From positions 128,001-192,000 of IMG/VR virus record IMGVR_UViG_3300031418_000005: a DNA stretch of 64,000 nucleotides; one strand, written 5' to 3'. A program made the translations under genes and the position numbers. The notes beneath the pieces are model-generated. The model was not told the origin of the DNA. It saw only the letters and a list, made by a program, of their open reading frames with translations, and made no database searches. The first letter of the stretch is position 1; the number at the start of each line of letters is the position of its first letter. The DNA comes from a virus. Positions 3,045 through 47,882 of this stretch are shown here, one piece after another.

Positions 3045-6000
3045 CTAAAGTTTCGTCGGCAGAACCGGCACGTCTTTCCCATCAAGGATATCCCCGATAA
3101 GAACACCTGCACGTTCACCAACCGCGTTCGCTGTCCCGATACGTTGAATGGAACCAACGATACGTGCGTCAACTGAGTCACGTCCAAAGAGGATGTCGAT
3201 GTCGTCCCCGGATTCAGTCCGGTTCACACCACGCATCACTTCCTGCACTGTGGTTTTCAGCTGGTTCGCGATAACCATTTTATCCGCAGCTGCCATATCC
3301 ACACGGTGCGTGATATAGAATCGAACGCACAATGAGTTATAAGCAAGCGGCACCCCTTCAACACGGTAGTCCCCGGTGACACGCCCATCGAGTGGGTCGT
3401 CTCGACCAACAGACAAGGCGGCTTTACGACGAATGCGGTCGTATTTGCGTACCAGTTCTGCCAGTGAGGCGGTCATGTCTTCGGTTTCGCCGTGATACAC
3501 CACTTCAATTTTGTCGATGTGGCCACGTACACCCGCACGAGGTGCGAACGAACTCAAGTCTTGCAAGGTTGCCGCAGCTTCTTTACTGAACCCCGACATA
3601 TCGCCGGTCAGGTTGTCGGTAAAGGTGCATAGAATTGAGTCCACGTCGACGTGGTCGCCTTCTTTACCAATCTCGAGCAAGTTCTGGTTAAAGGTAATCG
3701 TTACTTCTTTGAGTTTGGTAACATCAGACTGTGCTTTCGCAGCGAACCGCTCACTAATCGCATTGGAGTCTTCAATTACTTCTTCCCCTTCCGGTAACGC
3801 TACCGTAGCCAGTATCCCGTTCTTCCAGGACACCTGCGTCGGATCGTAGATATCGACTTCGAACTGTTGGTCATTGTAAGTGATGACTGTACCGGCCGGG
3901 AGTTTGTCTCCGGCTTTCCAGCGAGTAACCAGGGTGTGAGGATAATAGGTACCTTCGTGAGCGCCGAACCAGCGGCCCAGTGGGAATGCCTCTTTCTCAC
4001 CGTCTTCATAGGTGATTTCGATGTGGTCATCAGAGATGCCCGTAATTTTGCCTGCTTTGTCAATCACGCGTGCGTGTTTCACAGACGTACGGTGGGCGAC
4101 GGCTTTCTCCTGTTCTGTACGATACGGGGTAGTCGTGGCACCGATACACGATGTCGCTGACCCCATTTGAATCCCGACGAAGTTCTGACGCTTGGCGTCA
4201 TCCATCAGGGTGTCCGGTACCAGCCCATCGATAAACGACAGCGCATGACCAGGTTGTAACTCCCCGTCACGTTTGAACGTGGTGCCATCGACGGTATCGA
4301 AGGCCGGGTTGTTGGTTAAGAACGCGGTGATCCCTACGTCCCCGTTATCGACGGTGTTACCCGAAACGATACCGAGGTCAGAAGGTTGGAACTCACGAGT
4401 GTGGTAAACCATTGTCTTACGGTTACGGCCACCCGTACCCCCCATGGTCACAACGTCTTTCTCTTTGATGCTTTGAATCGCGTTTGCACCCGGTGCCAGC
4501 AGAACCGATGGGTCGGAGTTAATCGCCCCCCAAATCATGTCCTGTGTCAGTTCAAACTTGCGGTTTGATCCCGGTGCGTTGTTGTAGTTACGCATCGCAC
4601 GCACCATGGCGGTGTAGATGTGATACGCAATACGTTGGTTCCCGATGAACATCATTTCCTCACCGTTGATTTCCGGCAAGGTTTTGTCCGTCTGGAGCAT
4701 TTCGTTCGAACGTTGCAGCAAGCCGATAAAGGTTTCCGGCTCACCCATTTTCCTGAGGATACGTGCGTGCATGTCATCAACAAACGCGGTCCGCATTTGT
4801 TTCAGCTCTTTGATGTACCGTGGAGACAGGCCATCTGCATCACGAATCAGGTTCAGGTAAATGTCTTCGCGTTCCACTTCGGACTCGGTATACGCAGTGA
4901 AGTGTTTCAAATAACGGTCAAGACCGTTCAGTATCATGCGCTGTTGGTCGTTGTCACAGGTGATAGCATACTTCGCATCCGCTAAGCGGATAATGCTGTC
5001 GTACTGCGACTTGTCCAGGCGCTGACCCGCGGGCATGAGTTCGTACTGCATCCCAAAGTGCTTCAACATCCCCTGCAACCCGAGGTAGTAGGTAAAGATG
5101 AAGCCGAGTGAAAGTGACTTACCCATCAGAGACAGTTCGGTCATTTCACGCGGAGCTTTGGACGAATCCACACCCAGCATTTCAGCCAAGGTGCCCAGTG
5201 GTTCAACCTTGTCCTCTTTCACTTTATACATCTGTGACTTGCTGTCCATGCAGAGGATGATTTCGCTGCGTGGTTTCTTCGCAACAGGGATCAGGTTGGC
5301 GCGGTCCGCGTCGGCGATTTGATCACTGTCAAAGAAGACATCACGTTGTTTGAAATCAAAACTCCACATGTAGCCCATGGCATTGAAGCTTGCCACACGA
5401 CGTGCCACTTCGGTGTACTGACGCGGCAGTTCCAGCAGAGGGTCGAACACGTTTGCCAGTTTGGCATCGGTCACTTCGGTGTTTTTCGGGTCAACGGCAC
5501 GCGTGATAATCGCATTCGTCAACCAACGCCCGTAGTCGTTCACCACTTTATCACTGCGGCGTACAAAGTTCTTGCCGTACGCAGTGGTCAGGGCAACGGT
5601 GTCCGGGGCAACCTTACGGATAGGTAAATCGACACGCTGCTTACGCATGGTGTACTCAACACCGTTCGCAACCCAGGTACCGTCATCGGTCAGGGCCGGA
5701 ATGGAGAAGCGTACTGTGGTCGGTTCACCGCCGATAGGTTGAACGCGCAGGGTATGGTGTTCCACTTTCCCGGTCACGGTATTTTCTTTCTCTACCGTGT
5801 GGTTGTGAATCGCCAGGCCCAGGCGCTGTGACGATGCTACTGCAGACAAGATGTCTTTAGGCAGCATGGTCTTGTTATACTGTTTGATAATCTGGTCGTT
5901 AACGTTTTCAAACCACGCTTCGTCCGTAACCAGACGTTCAATCTTTTTCGGTTGCGCTTTGACTTCGATATCTTTCTTCTCGATAGTCAGCGCTTGTCCG

Positions 6001-19317: not shown

Positions 19318-20145
19318 TTAGGCATCCATATTGAGATTACGAACATGGACAATGCAGTGCGGAATGGACATAATCCAGTCGCGCGCTTTCTCACCCTGGA
19401 ACCACAGCTTCTGACCGCTAAACATCAGCAGGTCGTTCACCGGTTTGTCAGAACCCACTTCCGTGTAGGAAACAAAGTTATCCCACAGGTAGCTTAACAG
19501 GTCACGCGACGCATCGGTGTGATACGGTGCCTGAGATAAACGAGACACAATGCTGTGCGCTTCGGCCAACGTGAAAATATTCGTTGACTCAGGACGGGCC
19601 AGATAATGCTCAACCTTCAATGAGTCGGTTGGCAAATATTCCGGTCGCCCCGCTGTATGGCCAGGACGCCAGTATTGCGCATACGTTTCTTTTTCCGAGT
19701 ACACACCCGGCTCACCGGTGTAGTTCGGCAGTCGGGTCTCACGCTCCGTCAGACGCATCAGGAGGCCCGTACCCGTCGAGAGCCAGTATGTTACCTCGTT
19801 GTCCGATAAACGGTCTGGATGCTCTGGGAGAAGCGGATAGGGGTCAGTTACCGTGTCTTTGTTGACTCGATAGAAAGTATCCCCCTCGACATCGAGCGGT
19901 TTGTGGGATTTCACCATATTCCCCGTACCTTGACCCGGCGTGTAAGACAGCACCGTCTCCATCTCAACTTCGGTATCGCCCAAACAGATAGCACATGCCT
20001 GTCGGACGTTTTCCATCCCCGGCCCTGCATTCTGTCGCGCCACGACCCAGCGTGCACCCGATTCATCCGCCGCAACCACAATGGCACGGAACGACGGATT
20101 AACCGGCCCGGCGATAAACTCGTCGGTCACTAAGAAAATCTTCAT
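19318..20145 (-). CDS. Hypothetical protein
   Basis: 275 aa, GAGGA SD; N-terminal domain resembles that of 21747..22544. Confidence 0.65.
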   Translation of the reverse strand: MKIFLVTDEFIAGPVNPSFRAIVVAADESGARWVVARQNAGPGMENVRQACAICLGDTEVEMETVLSYTPGQGTGNMVKSHKPLDVEGDTFYRVNKDTVTDPYPLLPEHPDRLSDNEVTYWLSTGTGLLMRLTERETRLPNYTGEPGVYSEKETYAQYWRPGHTAGRPEYLPTDSLKVEHYLARPESTNIFTLAEAHSIVSRLSQAPYHTDASRDLLSYLWDNFVSYTEVGSDKPVNDLLMFSGQKLWFQGEKARDWIMSIPHCIVHVRNLNMDA

Positions 20146-20172
20146 GCGAAATGTCCTCTAGCTTTTTTTATA

Positions 20173-21024
20173 TTAGGCGTCAGCTTCTTTAATGAAGATG
20201 CCGTCGGCGTTCAAGAAACCTTTACGGTCTTTGATTTCATCCCACGCCAGGGAGAAGCATTGTTCCAGATTCATGTCGTACGCTTTCGCCAGTGTATTAG
20301 CGTACGCGATCATTTCACTGTAGTGGTATTCGATGTTAATACACACCGCGTTATCGAACGATTTGAAATCCAGCTTCTTCGGCGAATCCAAACCGGCAAC
20401 ACCCCACAGCTCATCGATGGCACAGGTGATGTGGTAGCGCATTTTGTGGAACAGGTAATGGGTGTTACCCATTCTGAATTCGTCACCAGCAGCCCAGCAG
20501 GCAATTTCCAGCGACTCGTGACCGGTCAGTTCCATCAGGTTTACCAGAACCACCAGTGCATCACCCAGGCCATCCATGATGAGCGGATGTTTGTTCTTAC
20601 CCACACCAGTTGCTGCTTCACCATCTTCTTCATACAGCTTAGTGCCCTGGGTGAACCAGACACCGTTGTCGAGGATGCCGCGTGCTTTCGACCAGCCAAT
20701 AACGTGATTCACGCAATCGGCGATGCTGTACAGACGGACGTAGCGAGGATGGGTAACTTCGCCTTTGTACACCGCGGTTGCTAAACGCAGAGGGAACACG
20801 ATGTCGTTGATTTCCAGTTTACCGTCTTCGGTACGCACTTTACCTTCAACGCGGGTTAAACCGGTTTCTTTGCTCACTGCCGCAGCATAGATTGTTTCAA
20901 ATTCCCACGGCGCACTGCCCGCATGATGAATGTAGCTTGCCATCTGCGCATTGATATCGGCAAGGTGTTTATTAGGTTCGAAGATGACAGCGTGTGGTAC
21001 CTGAATGACGAATTGGTCGCCCAT
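20173..21024 (-). CDS. MazG-like nucleotide pyrophosphohydrolase with N-terminal extension
   Basis: WSKARGILDNG...KLYEEDGE...DGLGDALVVL...CFSLAWDEIKDRKG...GIFIKEAD matches the phage MazG-like family; start placed at MGDQF (AAGGA SD). Confidence 0.8.
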   Translation of the reverse strand: MGDQFVIQVPHAVIFEPNKHLADINAQMASYIHHAGSAPWEFETIYAAAVSKETGLTRVEGKVRTEDGKLEINDIVFPLRLATAVYKGEVTHPRYVRLYSIADCVNHVIGWSKARGILDNGVWFTQGTKLYEEDGEAATGVGKNKHPLIMDGLGDALVVLVNLMELTGHESLEIACWAAGDEFRMGNTHYLFHKMRYHITCAIDELWGVAGLDSPKKLDFKSFDNAVCINIEYHYSEMIAYANTLAKAYDMNLEQCFSLAWDEIKDRKGFLNADGIFIKEADA

Positions 21025-21043
21025 GATAATTTTCCTTTTGGGT

Positions 21044-21077
21044 AAAAAAATAAGTGGTGTGTCCATATGGACACACC
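21044..21077 (-). terminator. Rho-independent terminator after the NrdA-tail peptide gene
   Basis: GGTGTGTCC-atat-GGACACACC followed on the minus strand by ACTTATTTTTTT. Confidence 0.75.
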
Positions 21078-21083
21078 AATTTG

Positions 21084-21239
21084 TTAAATTTTGCAGGCAC
21101 CGCCAGCACAACCGTCGTCTTCGGTCGCTGCGTCCACACCGCCTTCAACAGTGATGTCCGGGTCAAGCCCTGGGATATCACCGAAGTCCATCGGGTCAGT
21201 TGCCAGTTGTGTATCCTGAACCTGCTCGTTCTTGCTCAT
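21084..21239 (-). CDS. 51-aa acidic peptide ending in a ribonucleotide reductase NrdA-like C-terminal redox tail (DDGCAGGACKI)
   Basis: Manual translation MSKNEQVQDTQLATDPMDFGDIPGLDPDITVEGGVDAATEDDGCAGGACKI*; GAGAG SD, fills the gap between genes and is followed by a terminator. Confidence 0.8.
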   Translation of the reverse strand: MSKNEQVQDTQLATDPMDFGDIPGLDPDITVEGGVDAATEDDGCAGGACKI

Positions 21240-21250
21240 TGCTTACTCTC

Positions 21251-21724
21251 TTAATTGATTAGATGAATAACCACATCCGGCGTGACGACGTCAGCCAGAC
21301 TACGGTAAATTTTGTCAAAGCTAAACTTGTTGAAGAAGAAGCCAGCTTCATCGACAATGACCAAACTGAACTTCTCATAACCAGAGAGTCCAGAGCCTGT
21401 TGCGTTCTGCCAGTTTTCTGGCAGATAGCCAGAATGTACTGTGAGCCATCCGTCACCAGAAGCTTTCGCATGGAATTTTTCCACGACCTCGTCACGCAAC
21501 GCCACGGCATGAACCAAGTACAGTACGCTACCGCGGTGCTTTGCCGCCATATCGACTGCGTGCGCAGTCACCCCTCTCTGGCGACCTGCACCGTAACGAA
21601 TGGTACGGAATTCACTCAGATCCAACCCCGGTCGGAAGTTGAGTCGTTTTGCTTCGTCACTGTCTAATGCTACCAGACCATTCGAAAGTTCTTTCACTAC
21701 CAGATTATAGTTAATTGGAGTCAT
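21251..21724 (-). CDS. Stand-alone P-loop/helicase-like single-domain protein
   Basis: GAGRQRGVT (degenerate Walker A), VLYLV and LVIVDEAG (Walker B). Confidence 0.5.
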   Translation of the reverse strand: MTPINYNLVVKELSNGLVALDSDEAKRLNFRPGLDLSEFRTIRYGAGRQRGVTAHAVDMAAKHRGSVLYLVHAVALRDEVVEKFHAKASGDGWLTVHSGYLPENWQNATGSGLSGYEKFSLVIVDEAGFFFNKFSFDKIYRSLADVVTPDVVIHLIN

Positions 21725-21746
21725 AGACACTTTGATTACCTCTTCG

Positions 21747-22544
21747 TTAGTATTTTGCCATCCGCATGTTACCGTTCTCGTCAGTGACCACGGTAAGTTT
21801 GGAGGCTTCTTTACGGACATATTCCGGTACCAGCTTCTGCCAGTCCGGGTGACGGTACCAAGTCAGGGTGTGATAACCGATTTGTTCGGTCAGTTGCTCC
21901 CAGCCTTCGACCGGAGTACGGGAATAGAAATGGTGACGCGCTTGTGCTGCCCAGTCGTGATACTCAGTGGCACGACCAACATATTTCAACACATCGGCTA
22001 ACACATGTTCGATAGTCACCGGCAGGTTTTCAGTTTCCTGCCAGGTGTACGTCGCGGTGTGTTCACCCGGTTCGAACTGCGCGTCGAACGATGGAATCCC
22101 ATTAAAGTGAATCTGCGAATTTCCACCGAGCTCCTGCGAGATAATGGTAACCGTCCATTGCCCTGCGGCAGGTGGGACACCGAACTCACTCGTCTCAGGG
22201 ACTTTGGCGTAGTTCTTAAAGCGCAAGTCGATGTCTGGCGGCAGACCCAACATCTCGATAAGCTTGCGCTCAAAGTCGGTCAGGTCACCACCTTCAATGA
22301 CCTTCCAACCCGGACAAACAACACTACGGTTAATGTAGCGATGGCGTTCTGGCCAGTTACGCACACCCTCCGCAAACAACAGTGCACCGTGCGCGTCAGT
22401 TTCACCCACGTCAACCAAATCGATAACCGTTGGCACAAGATGACGTGCCTCGTTCTCATCGCGGGCGGCTACGACGCCGTGGTTATACGTGTCATAGTTC
22501 GTGGTATAAAATGCATCGGAGAAAAGAAACAGTCTGTTTTTCAT
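21747..22544 (-). CDS. Hypothetical protein
   Basis: TAATG-coupled start MKNRLF; YDTYNHGVVAARDENEAR N-terminal domain. Confidence 0.65.
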   Translation of the reverse strand: MKNRLFLFSDAFYTTNYDTYNHGVVAARDENEARHLVPTVIDLVDVGETDAHGALLFAEGVRNWPERHRYINRSVVCPGWKVIEGGDLTDFERKLIEMLGLPPDIDLRFKNYAKVPETSEFGVPPAAGQWTVTIISQELGGNSQIHFNGIPSFDAQFEPGEHTATYTWQETENLPVTIEHVLADVLKYVGRATEYHDWAAQARHHFYSRTPVEGWEQLTEQIGYHTLTWYRHPDWQKLVPEYVRKEASKLTVVTDENGNMRMAKY

Positions 22545-23080
22545 TAGCACTCCACCCAAATCAAACAGAACTCTTCCGGGTCTAACGTCGGATGAATAAT
22601 CAACGCTTCTTTATACTCCGGAATATCGTCCTCCACACGGTGTTCTGCGGTTAACGCCGACAGTTGCATGTAGAGGTCGTCGTCCATTTGACCGTTAAAG
22701 GTTGAGGTCAGGATGAACGGCAACGCCTCAGCAATCTGCACCAGTTGGTTACGGTTGATACGGATGCTCAAGGTACGCTTTTGATCAAACCACGCACCTT
22801 GTTCGTGCAGACCACGGTCAGTGTTAATGAAGATACGGTCAACCATACCTTCCGGACAACGTGCCCACATACGCACCGCAATAATGTACCACCAGTCCAT
22901 CATGTCCGCAGAGAACAGAATCGTCTTGGTGGTACCATCTGGCTGAGGAATCTCTAACCCGCCCACATCTGGCGTGCTAAGATTGATTACCTGTCCTTTA
23001 TCACCGGAGGCCACTGTAATAGGTTCAGCGGTTTTCGTTGCAGCCGGTTTAGCGAACGGGATAATGTTGTTGTCAGTCAT
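22544..23080 (-). CDS. Hypothetical protein
   Basis: Start MTDNNIIPF with GAGG SD just after thyA. Confidence 0.65.
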   Translation of the reverse strand: MTDNNIIPFAKPAATKTAEPITVASGDKGQVINLSTPDVGGLEIPQPDGTTKTILFSADMMDWWYIIAVRMWARCPEGMVDRIFINTDRGLHEQGAWFDQKRTLSIRINRNQLVQIAEALPFILTSTFNGQMDDDLYMQLSALTAEHRVEDDIPEYKEALIIHPTLDPEEFCLIWVEC

Positions 23081-23096
23081 ACAGACCTCGGTAACG

Positions 23097-24116
23097 TTAG
23101 ATCGCGACGGGCGCTTTAATCGCCGGATGCGAAATGTAATCGACAACCTCGAAGTCTTCGAATTTGTAGTCGAAGATGGAATCGGGCTTACGTTTGATAA
23201 CCAACTTCGGTAACGGTTTAGGGTCACGGGTAAGTTGGAGGTCAGCTTGTTCCAGATGGTTGGAGTACAGATGCGTATCACCACCTGTCCAGACGAAGTC
23301 GCCTACCGCCATGTTCGCCTGTTGTGCAAACATGTGTACCAGCAAGGCGTAAGACGCGATGTTAAACGGTACGCCAAGGAACATGTCCGCACTACGCTGA
23401 TAGAGCTGACAAGAAAGAACGCGAGCTGGGACACCTTCGTTGTCAATTACCGCGTGCATCAGTGTGTCGTTGTTAATGATATCATTACTAAAGCGGATCG
23501 CTTCAAACTTATCAGGAAGGTTATTTTCCATCCAGTCTAATCGTTCGGCGACTGACAACTCGCGTGTGTAGAACTGGAAGAACGCATGACACGGTGCCAA
23601 AGCCATCTCGTCTAGCTCTGCCACGTTCCAGGCACTGACAATAATGCGGCGGTTGTCTGGGTCGTTACGCAGCTGGTCAACCACTTTGGCGATTTGGTCA
23701 ATACTTTTCCTGTACAGGATGTCAGATTCCCACGTCCCTGATTGTTCCCATCCCTCGGATTCGAGCTCTGCACACCCAGCACTATGAAACGCCGACATTT
23801 CCGTGTGTGCAATCCAGCTACGCCATTGCTTACCGTACACCGGGCCTAAGTCACCGTTTTTATCCGCCCATTCGTCCCAGATGGTGACGTTGTTGTCTTT
23901 CAAATACTGGATGTTGGTGTCACCCATGAGGAACCACAGCAGCTCATGGATGATTGAACGAAGGTGAACCTTTTTGGTGGTGACCAGCGGAAAACCTTCT
24001 TGTAAGTTAAAGCGCATCTGGCGTCCGAAAACAGAGAGGGTGCCCGTACCGGTACGGTCGGCTTTTACATCCCCGTTTTCGCGAACATCACGCAGTAAGT
24101 CCAGATATTGTTTCAT
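23097..24116 (-). CDS. thyA: Thymidylate synthase
   Basis: [34 protein letters not shown] (catalytic Cys), [29 protein letters not shown]. Confidence 0.97.
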
Positions 24117-24999
24117 GGTGTGCATTATCCTGTTTTAGGGCGTTCATGATAAACTTGAGGTCGTCGTTGTACGTCGCCGTCACGGTGCCGTTTTCGTACG
24201 TGATAAGAATCTTTGGCGTCCGCTCGAACGTAAGATGCCGCCATTTATCATCGGCGTAGATGTGGCGCTCCAGCAGTTCTTCCAACGCCTCTGCCAACTT
24301 ATCACTGACCTCATCAACCTTGTGAGACGCAAACGGTGTGTGAACGTAAGGCACGAAGGCTTTCGCCGCTGCGGCGTTTAGACCACTTTCGATATAGAAG
24401 TGCGTCAACTGACCCGACGGGAGCTTCTCGTTGACCAGGGGTTGTGTTATCGAGTCGCCATCAAAGTCGTCGGGGCTGAGTACGAACATACCCAGTTCAT
24501 TCATTACACCCCGCGTCCGAATCAGTGCGTAGTGACCGTTGTAGACGACCCGGTCAAACTCCAACCCACACACCCGACACAGTGAGCCTAACGACATCAT
24601 GAAATCACCGAAGGCTTTCAGGAAGCTGTGCAGGCAGAACTCACCTTCCTCAGGCGTCTGCCAGACAAGATCCAAAGTGTTGTGCATCAATGCGTGCAGT
24701 TGCGCATGTTTGTTGGTAGCTTTCACCTTTAACTGGATGTAATGGTCAAGCTGGTCATGCAGCGGAACGTCGTTGGCGGGCTTCGAGAAATGCACGAGTC
24801 CGATAAACGTCCACAGTAGTCGACCTGCTCCCGCGGCCACTTTCAGGTTATCGTGTTTTTGCACACCCTCAGCGACTTCGCCGAGGCAGCGGTAAAGTTT
24901 GCTACGCTGTTGTTCGTAGCTACCGAACTGGTACACCAGCGAATCGGTGTACCAACTGTTTACGGCATGAATTTGAATCTCGGCATTAGGCAGCTGCAT
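24088..24999 (-). CDS. Degenerate MazG-like protein with C-terminal extension
   Basis: W...[20 protein letters not shown]...AGAGRLL...[13 protein letters not shown] parallels the intact MazG-like gene, but the acidic residues are replaced. Confidence 0.5.
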
Positions 25000-47303: not shown

Positions 47304-47882
47304 TTACTCTTCGAAGAATGGTTCGTTAGGCACGACCGCATATTCGAGGACGAACAGATGTTCTGGAGCAGTCTCAGAACGCCAGAGTTTGTGGCAACGG
47401 CCGAGCTTCTCCAGAATGGTCAGGAACGAACGCTGGCAGTATTCGCTCTCACCGAACCACAGGTTCTGCAGCGCCACGGTCACTTCCATGTACGCTTCTT
47501 TAAACGTGAGGTCAGGGTTATAACCGGCAACCGGACGCCAGGTCAGCACAAAGCCCGCTTCTGTCTCATCAACGCTTGGACGCAGGCCGAGAATCCACAG
47601 CAGCGCCAGGTTGATATTCCAGTCGAACTCAATCCCTTCGTCTTCATCGTCACCGAAAGCGGCAATGAACGCGTCGTAGAACTCGTGCTTGGTGGCGAAC
47701 CACTCGTTGTAGTCCATGTACGTCGGCTGCACAGTCGGTTCTTCACCTTCTGGCGGCTCCACGTAATCCGGGTTAGTCTGCACAGATTCAGCGCCACCCT
47801 TAATCAGGGAGAAGGCATCCTCGGCAGTGAGCTGGGCAGCGCGTTTGAAAGCGTCATACCAGGGTTGTGTAACGATGGTCAA
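47304..47882 (-). CDS. Hypothetical protein
   Basis: 192 aa acidic; AAGGAG SD, TTG start. Confidence 0.6.
   Translation of the reverse strand: MTIVTQPWYDAFKRAAQLTAEDAFSLIKGGAESVQTNPDYVEPPEGEEPTVQPTYMDYNEWFATKHEFYDAFIAAFGDDEDEGIEFDWNINLALLWILGLRPSVDETEAGFVLTWRPVAGYNPDLTFKEAYMEVTVALQNLWFGESEYCQRSFLTILEKLGRCHKLWRSETAPEHLFVLEYAVVPNEPFFEE

Follow-up and report, generated by a model that had tools for sequence, protein, structure and literature searches.

Ribonucleotide reductase (RNR) is the only route to the building blocks of DNA, and in its large (alpha) subunit, NrdA, a swinging arm carries electrons from thioredoxin (Trx) or glutaredoxin (Grx) to the active-site disulfide. Here we describe a phage-encoded peptide of 51 amino acids (aa) that resembles the end of this arm and stands free of any reductase. 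Its open reading frame (ORF) lies on the minus strand at positions 21084-21239, stop codon included, of a 64,000-nucleotide stretch (the window), which comprises bases 128001-192000 of the 246,337-base phage genome IMGVR_UViG_3300031418_000005, rated 100% complete; unless another record is named, positions below are those of the window. The portions of two published accounts that concern the C-terminal arm of NrdA describe disulfide exchange both with the active site and with Trx/Grx, and they present the path of the disordered alpha tail to the active site and the redoxins as still poorly seen structurally (PMC11903788, PMC11067019).

With the tail of class Ia RNR alpha (Cys754/Cys759 in Escherichia coli NrdA), the peptide shares the last 12-13 residues, the Cys-x4-Cys spacing, the G-A-C-K-I ending, and the free carboxyl end, and its chemistry is presumably the same, with disulfides exchanged both at the active site and with Trx/Grx. 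It differs in that it has no catalytic barrel, is encoded by a virus without an RNR, and carries an extra segment, here called the anchor, that has no counterpart in NrdA. In the literature, the nearest parallel is the split class II RNR, for which parts of three accounts describe a separately encoded re-reduction tail, NrdJb, that acts in trans for NrdJa (bioRxiv 10.1101/2022.04.23.489257, PMC9669993, PMC4520616). There, too, an RNR tail is a polypeptide of its own, although the window peptide has no tail-less catalytic partner in its genome and lacks the additional domains of NrdJb, and its tail is of the class Ia type.

Sml1, Spd1, and their relatives are small unstructured yeast proteins that bind the RNR large subunit and are cellular inhibitors; Sml1 is reported to act in competition with the Cys pair and its surroundings at the C terminus of the large subunit itself. 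These proteins are not tail copies, whereas the phage peptide keeps the redox pair, and its own binding to the large subunit is a modeled one (score 0.73 vs. 0.00 for the best control). In the CP12/GAPDH-B system, the free disordered Cys-pair peptide CP12 is homologous to the C-terminal extension of an enzyme, inserts itself into an active site in a manner controlled by thioredoxin, is inhibitory when oxidized, and is also carried by cyanophages, which thereby redirect the metabolism of the host. The layout is analogous to that of the phage peptide, but the enzyme system is another one, and there is no sequence relation. C-terminal peptides of the RNR radical subunit NrdB (beta-tail peptides) inhibit RNR by competition. 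The anchor of the phage peptide is modeled in the same alpha cleft, as far as the relevant part of PMC11067019 delimits it, but there is no by-eye alignment of the anchor to the E. coli NrdB tail, and the peptide also carries the alpha tail. A section of one report describes a glutaredoxin domain fused to NrdB in Facklamia ignava (PMC6187632); there the re-reduction machinery of a class I RNR has been rearranged by fusion, whereas here the electron-carrying arm is detached into a virus. We found no published description of a free-standing RNR alpha-tail peptide, viral or otherwise, in a literature search that was light on subscription journals, and the motif string returned 0 papers.

Read from the sequence, the ORF runs from an ATG at 21239-21237 to a TAA at 21086-21084. 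The product is acidic, with 12 Asp/Glu against two Lys and a net charge of about -10 by counting, and it is small and probably disordered. Three parts can be distinguished, all on the minus strand. The NrdA-like redox tail comprises residues 39-51 (TEDDGCAGGACKI; 21087-21125) and contains Cys44, Cys49, and the free C-terminal Lys-Ile. The acidic-hydrophobic anchor (residues 19-38, FGDIPGLDPDITVEGGVDAA; 21126-21185) is conserved, includes V-E-G-G-V-D, and is not NrdA-like. The N-terminal stretch (residues 1-18; 21186-21239) is variable and poorly conserved, differs in length among relatives, and corresponds to the site where other proteins are joined in fused relatives.

E. coli K-12 NrdA ends in IQDDGCESGACKI. 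Over the final 11 residues, the peptide agrees with it at nine, and neither the spacing of the Cys nor the free KI differs. An earlier note, made from the sequence alone, gave the same 51-aa translation and had pointed to this likeness; it proves to be closer in other NrdA proteins, since the last 12 residues of the peptide (EDDGCAGGACKI) are identical to NrdA C-termini of bacterial genomes (e.g., loci L029 and L033-L035) and of phage contigs, and the same 12-residue tail is found in numerous class Ia NrdA proteins of proteobacteria and phages. The 45 bacterial loci matched by the peptide are open frames ending in (E/Q/D)DDGCAGGACK[IL]; most are 531-852 aa long, and the five shorter ones (88-296 aa) are still NrdA C-terminal sequence. 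Among the viral loci of the first scan, 13 out of 20 are NrdA C-termini. When a profile of 38 peptide relatives was set against one of 20 NrdA C-termini with hhalign, the last 13 columns only were aligned (probability 96.9, E = 1.6e-10). Judged by these alignments, the likeness to NrdA is genuine and confined to the tail. A longer homology, in which the anchor would correspond by eye to the helix before the last NrdA strand, was rejected on the same hhalign result.

No Pfam family matched the peptide. The C-terminal Cys-x4-Cys tail that marks NrdA is present at its polypeptide end; the catalytic ten-stranded barrel (PF02867/PF00317) is absent from it, and PF02867 occurs nowhere in the genome. 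Nor is it a Trx or Grx: Besides the lack of a Pfam match, Cys-x4-Cys is not CxxC, and the length is too short for the fold. A sequence search of the PDB gave one weak match, to the tail of chain 7mdi_A (E = 0.25). According to part of one survey, Cys-x4-Cys is a minority type among class I tails, typified by E. coli (PMC9669993); this fits, by our own linking of the two, the known hosts of isolated phages that bear the module (anchor plus tail).

The peptide belongs to a sizable family. It is a member of phrog_14561 (E = 8.1e-31, residues 1-51 on profile positions 1-51), with phrog_24014 and phrog_38753 next (1e-13 and 3.2e-12, respectively), and PHROGs divides the family into three groups with no function assigned. 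A tblastn search for relatives and a look at Cys conservation had been proposed as a check, and both came out in favor of the peptide: There are relatives in 70 phage records, mainly SPN3US-like jumbo phages (Erwinia, Salmonella, Cronobacter, Escherichia, and Proteus), and all 17 stand-alone ORFs have both Cys, while neither the terminal G-A-C-K-[IL] nor the place of the stop codon varies. The codons of these 17 ORFs vary synonymously, the first Cys being TGT in eight and TGC in nine and Ala using four codons. Among named phages, phiEaH2 and Stratton, both of Erwinia, are the nearest relatives (69% of a 2.5-kb query aligned, at ~77% nucleotide identity), and in phiEaH2 the annotation of the ortholog reads "hypothetical protein".

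Searching 1.84 billion representative proteins with a profile gave 58 matches at E ≤ 0.001. Fifty-one of them, 35-245 aa long, end in C-x-x-G-[AG]-C-K-[IL], with the module always C-terminal, and 49 of these 51 intact-tail members have at most 120 aa. In four matches (P0024, P0052, P0060, and P0062), the tail is extended or lost by a frame change, and these may be sequencing errors or decaying copies; the other three are proteins of >2000 aa with many short matched stretches, which we take, from that pattern, to be unrelated. There is no full-length NrdA among the 58, and the profile therefore rests on more than the tail. The matches come from many metagenomes, one subfamily member being present on 398 contigs and another bearing the source label of a Neisseria metagenome-assembled genome. 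Within the anchor, V31, G34, and D36 are conserved in ≥90% of 38 sequences. The family layout, into which the window peptide fits, consists of a hydrophobic-acidic stretch, a V-E-G-G-V-D-type motif, an acidic linker, and C-x-x-G-A-C-K-[IL], with no RNR barrel. On this pattern of conservation, the family is under selection and not a relic.

The carriers were searched for reductases. The whole genome lacks domains of NrdA, NrdB, NrdD, thioredoxin, and glutaredoxin, and the absence of nrdA that had been remarked on for the window thus holds for all 246,337 bases. Among 24 module-bearing phage records, none has the NrdA/NrdJ catalytic domain PF02867, which was found in three out of three positive controls. 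It had been suggested that the peptide could be a tail split off from a phage NrdA encoded elsewhere. We reject this because the genome has no NrdA, NrdB, or NrdD and PF02867 is missing from all 24 records; the search of the genome for nrdA/nrdB or a tail-less NrdA that was proposed together with it likewise found none.

A model of the peptide with NrdA, also among the checks proposed, gave a positive result. We used E. coli NrdA residues 1-737 (its own tail removed), as a stand-in for the host enzyme, together with the window peptide and its 38-row alignment. The scores were 0.73, 0.74, and 0.73, and the best of three controls scored 0.00. The pass mark is met by 58 out of 80 solved complexes and by two out of 110 mismatched pairs, a calibration that holds only roughly here because our own alignment was used. 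The runs agree in ≥77% of contacts, and the partner has a predicted local distance difference test score (pLDDT) of at least 56. The main interface is that of peptide residues 19-39, modeled along NrdA 347-350, 394-411, 706-723, and 731-736. Peptide residues 48-51 are modeled against NrdA 207-209, 224-225, 437-439, 441, 464, and 620-625, a set that includes, by number, the active-site cysteines 225 and 439. The variable residues 1-18 are outside the confident interface, which the conserved parts form. According to PMC11067019, the helix at the C terminus of NrdB docks on helices 341-349 and 711-724 of alpha. The anchor's contacts overlap these helices, which places the anchor of the model in the NrdB-tail cleft, and it also lies over Tyr731. 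The model supports binding of the peptide to NrdA. The earlier note missed the large family, the second conserved segment that is not NrdA-like, and the modeled place of that segment in the NrdB-tail cleft.

The peptide gene was correctly placed in a thyA/MazG cluster. On the same strand, a MazG-like nucleotide pyrophosphohydrolase (20173-21024; phrog_7855, E = 1.3e-132) is the next gene downstream, and thymidylate synthase ThyA (PF00303, E = 1.9e-117) lies at 23097-24125. In SPN3US-like phages, the module gene is found between thyA and the MazG-like gene, usually directly after p189, the gene upstream of the peptide in the window; gene order differs in CR5, in which p189 is not directly upstream. 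In complete, unrelated phages of ~60 kb, the module is located between an RdgC-like gene and a deoxynucleoside monophosphate (dNMP) kinase, with a ThyX-type thymidylate synthase 1.4 kb further and a weak match to deoxycytidine monophosphate deaminase upstream. The module is also present in Alexandravirus-type jumbo phages and, on a 29-kb contig, among replication genes.

Three relatives recall the split class II system, in that parts of NrdJb are echoed in them. On a 45-kb contig (L103, 4001-4521), the module gene immediately precedes a NifU-like gene for an Fe-S scaffold (phrog_8429), and in P0036 (89 aa, from a single contig of 586 bases), a NifU_N fragment is joined to the module. The third is Vibrio phage ICP2 (ICP2_2013_A_Haiti, L075 2378-2590, record positions 47344-47556), in which an unannotated 70-aa ORF ending in DSDCAGGACKI has two zinc-ribbon-like CxxC pairs before the tail and lies between thymidine kinase and NrdD-like anaerobic RNR genes. 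We also observe that the NifU-like neighbor and the P0036 fusion echo the IscU-like domain of long class II RNR C-termini, and that a 5-kb stretch around the 70-aa ORF in the ICP2 record carries no annotated features.

There are three further natural fusions. P0045 is a 5'-3' deoxyribonucleotidase with the whole module at its C terminus (five contigs), and P0064, on a single contig of 1174 bases, is a nucleotide pyrophosphohydrolase of the MazG-like class with a C-terminal module. In the IMG/VR sequence L081 (236,909 bases), a single open frame at 3185-4114 joins a homolog of p265, another gene of the window's cluster (3185-3946), to the module (4001-4114), and the locus has no p189. The thyA match in L081 falls in three pieces (532-774, 1387-1821, and 2127-2420), as if interrupted by inserts.

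The target of the peptide is probably host class Ia NrdA, a reading that gains support because the complex model passes its controls and because the linkage to nucleotide genes is repeated. Of the three roles that the earlier note had offered, the split NrdA has thus fallen away, action on host NrdA has been strengthened, and both an electron shuttle and an inhibitor remain as forms of that action. We favor the shuttle, at a probability of roughly 0.4, over the inhibitor: The peptide would be a trans-acting tail mimic on host NrdA whose net effect supports turnover rather than inhibits it. The anchor would replace the covalent tether of the native arm by holding the peptide on NrdA. Host Trx/Grx would reduce its Cys pair; the anchor would dock on NrdA with the C-terminal end entering the catalytic pocket, as in the model; this end would then reduce the NrdA Cys225-Cys462 disulfide by thiol-disulfide exchange; and the oxidized peptide would leave NrdA and be recharged by Trx/Grx. 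Since the phage has no reductase or redoxins of its own, host deoxynucleoside diphosphate synthesis would in this way be kept running for the co-located thyA and MazG-like genes. The docking here is that of the model, and the sign of the effect on NrdA is one that we infer. Three observations argue for a shuttle: the retention of the Cys pair, the absence of RNR and redoxins from the carriers, and the company of enzymes that build thymidine triphosphate (dTTP). In particular, the strict conservation of both Cys points to shuttle chemistry, since a plug would not need an attacking and a resolving Cys.

More tentatively, we propose a wider scheme, in which RNR-less phages would take over host NrdA with a two-part mimic of ~40 residues. 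One half would sit at the tail dock of the radical subunit, and the other would be a working electron-carrying arm, rechargeable by host Trx/Grx, so that the mimic would control the rate-limiting re-reduction; the module would also have been bolted onto nucleotide enzymes to place them at the reductase.

Several points weigh against a shuttle. A gain in rate is not obvious, because a free arm competes with the tethered one. The absence of RNR from the carriers is statistically weak, the 24 records representing about six independent lineages, and its baseline is a lower bound only (NrdA homologs in at least 5000 of 50,697 phage records). In the NrdA tails of Enterobacterales, which we used as the likely-host comparison with similarity to E. 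coli as a proxy for host, the two residues between the Cys are ES in 16 cases, EG in four, and AG in none (best 20 of 219 matches). Direct copying of a host tail is therefore not supported; within the peptide family these residues are AG, EG, TG, PS, and others, and the two positions thus seem free to vary. E. coli NrdA is only a stand-in for the host enzyme in the complex model, and part of the model score may be memory, because alpha with beta-tail peptides has already been solved. Finally, the modeled pose overlaps the NrdB-tail cleft and the neighborhood of Tyr731. A peptide bound in this pose should exclude NrdB and substrate, as an inhibitor does, and such a place for the anchor would favor inhibition at least as much as shuttling.

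An inhibitor of host RNR is the strongest rival, although we consider it somewhat unlikely. It would be bivalent, with the anchor in the NrdB-tail cleft over Tyr731 and the tail plugging the catalytic pocket, so that NrdB and substrate are excluded; the phage might benefit because host replication is arrested, because the pool of deoxynucleoside triphosphates (dNTPs) is lowered or altered, or because it evades defenses that sense a rise in dNTPs. The modeled interface (NrdA 347-350, 706-712, 714-716, 719, 723, 731-736, 207-209, and 620-625) is consistent with this, given a beta-tail cleft that the pertinent part of PMC11067019 assigns to helices 341-349 and 711-724, as is the lack of an obvious advantage of a free arm over the native tethered one. 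The pyrophosphohydrolase and deoxyribonucleotidase found as fusion partners remove dNTPs or dNMPs. A motive to limit RNR output is also at hand, in that the DRT2, DRT4, and DRT9 defenses are triggered by the rise in dNTPs caused by phage NrdAB, according to a portion of one preprint (bioRxiv 10.64898/2026.10.27.754916); we infer that phages using host RNR might avoid or reshape the dNTP signal that fires these systems. However, carriers with no RNR of their own (none in the 24 records) would pay for a block with their de novo dNTP supply, and the neighboring thyA, or ThyX together with dNMP kinase, builds dTTP. The strict retention of two Cys is needless for a plug, and a two-Cys tail in a reducing cytoplasm should complete the exchange rather than stay trapped.

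A tail aimed at Trx/Grx rather than at NrdA is considerably less likely than either. It could be a decoy that draws off or reports on the redoxin pool, or a handle by which redoxins are led to phage proteins. In favor are that the tail serves as a redoxin substrate in NrdA (PMC11903788, in the passages on the arm), that the phage genome has no Trx or Grx domain, and that the module is attached to different proteins. Yet a substrate is released once reduced and is ill suited as an inhibitor, the module is linked with nucleotide genes and not with redox genes, and both the conserved anchor and the NrdA model (controls at 0.00) would be left unexplained.

We give slightly less credence again to a targeting tag, by which the module would tether the MazG-like enzyme, deoxyribonucleotidase, and p265 to host RNR in a dNTP-making assembly, the free peptide being a detached version. 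The three C-terminal fusions P0045, P0064, and L081 and the constant C-terminal place of the module agree with such a role, as do the MazG-like and p265 genes nearby. Against it, 49 of the 51 intact-tail members are at most 120 aa, with a short variable N terminus and no second conserved surface for cargo; P0064 is known from one 1174-base contig and L081 from one contig; and occupation of the NrdB cleft would stop the very enzyme that the cargo should serve. A non-functional leftover of a deleted nrdA, or a chance ORF, might be thought of in view of an NrdA-like tail in a genome without nrdA, but it is very improbable: A relic is rejected on conservation (17 of 17 stand-alone ORFs, 51 of 58 profile matches) that extends over several genera of phages and over unrelated phage types, where codons change synonymously while the tail stays the same, the peptide outside the tail is conserved yet not NrdA-like, the natural fusions keep frame, and the gene has the Shine-Dalgarno (SD)-like site and terminator given below.

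If the shuttle, or a bivalent mimic, is the true role, it would be a new viral way to control a host enzyme, a form of takeover in which the phage supplies one moving part and not the whole enzyme. A soluble, evolutionarily tuned copy of the tail with its own docking element would then be a tool to trap or image the re-reduction step, as well as a natural starting point for the design of peptides to modulate the class Ia RNR of bacteria.

The signals around the ORF, all on the minus strand, are as first described. An SD-like GAGAG (21250-21246) lies 6 nt before the ATG and immediately past the p189 stop, which is at 21253-21251, 11 nt ahead of the peptide ATG. Between the peptide and MazG-like genes there is an intrinsic-terminator-like hairpin with a T run (21045-21078), whose stem-loop (21078-21055; 10 pairs, six of them G-C) starts 5 nt past the peptide stop and is followed by CTTATTTTTT. 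Since eight terminator-like sites were found in the region and 7.0 are expected from shuffles, the hairpin is notable for its position and not for its count.

Upstream, p189 (phrog_2586, minus strand) has a longest ORF of 189 aa (21251-21820) that runs into the end of p265; its start is probably the ATG at 21727 (21251-21727, 158 aa), because homologs and the PHROG match begin near residue 32. A p189 model (pLDDT 72) gave weak Foldseek matches to helicase/RecA-like domains (template modeling scores of 0.4-0.56), and p189 would by this model be a lone RecA-like P-loop domain; it keeps a Walker-B-like VIVDEAG and has GAGRQRGVT at the expected place of Walker A. The 265-aa p265 (21747-22544, minus strand; phrog_10453) gave a model with a mean pLDDT of 85 that matched no solved fold in Foldseek or VIA-align (best VIA Z = 4.6, over 57 residues). 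As partners of the peptide, the two were set aside, weak RecA-like matches in one and no fold match in the other explaining nothing about it. Pfam and PHROG searches of the neighbors, two of which have uninformative folds, found no family of enzymes that modify ribosomally synthesized peptides (RiPPs). Beyond thyA, a 303-aa protein (24088-24999, minus strand; phrog_10269) has a weak phrog_7855 match (E = 4.3e-06); this protein and the MazG-like one encoded at 20173-21024 seem to be paralogs, of which it has diverged.

Contigs from RNA libraries overlap parts of the MazG-like and p265 genes and not the peptide ORF, though such contigs cannot show absence. Most sequencing runs that contain this DNA are phyllosphere metagenomes; in five runs so labeled, 0.99-1.00 of the words sampled from positions 20100-22600 were matched, and in one run of a coded organism, a single 99-kb contig spans these positions entirely, with eight differences.

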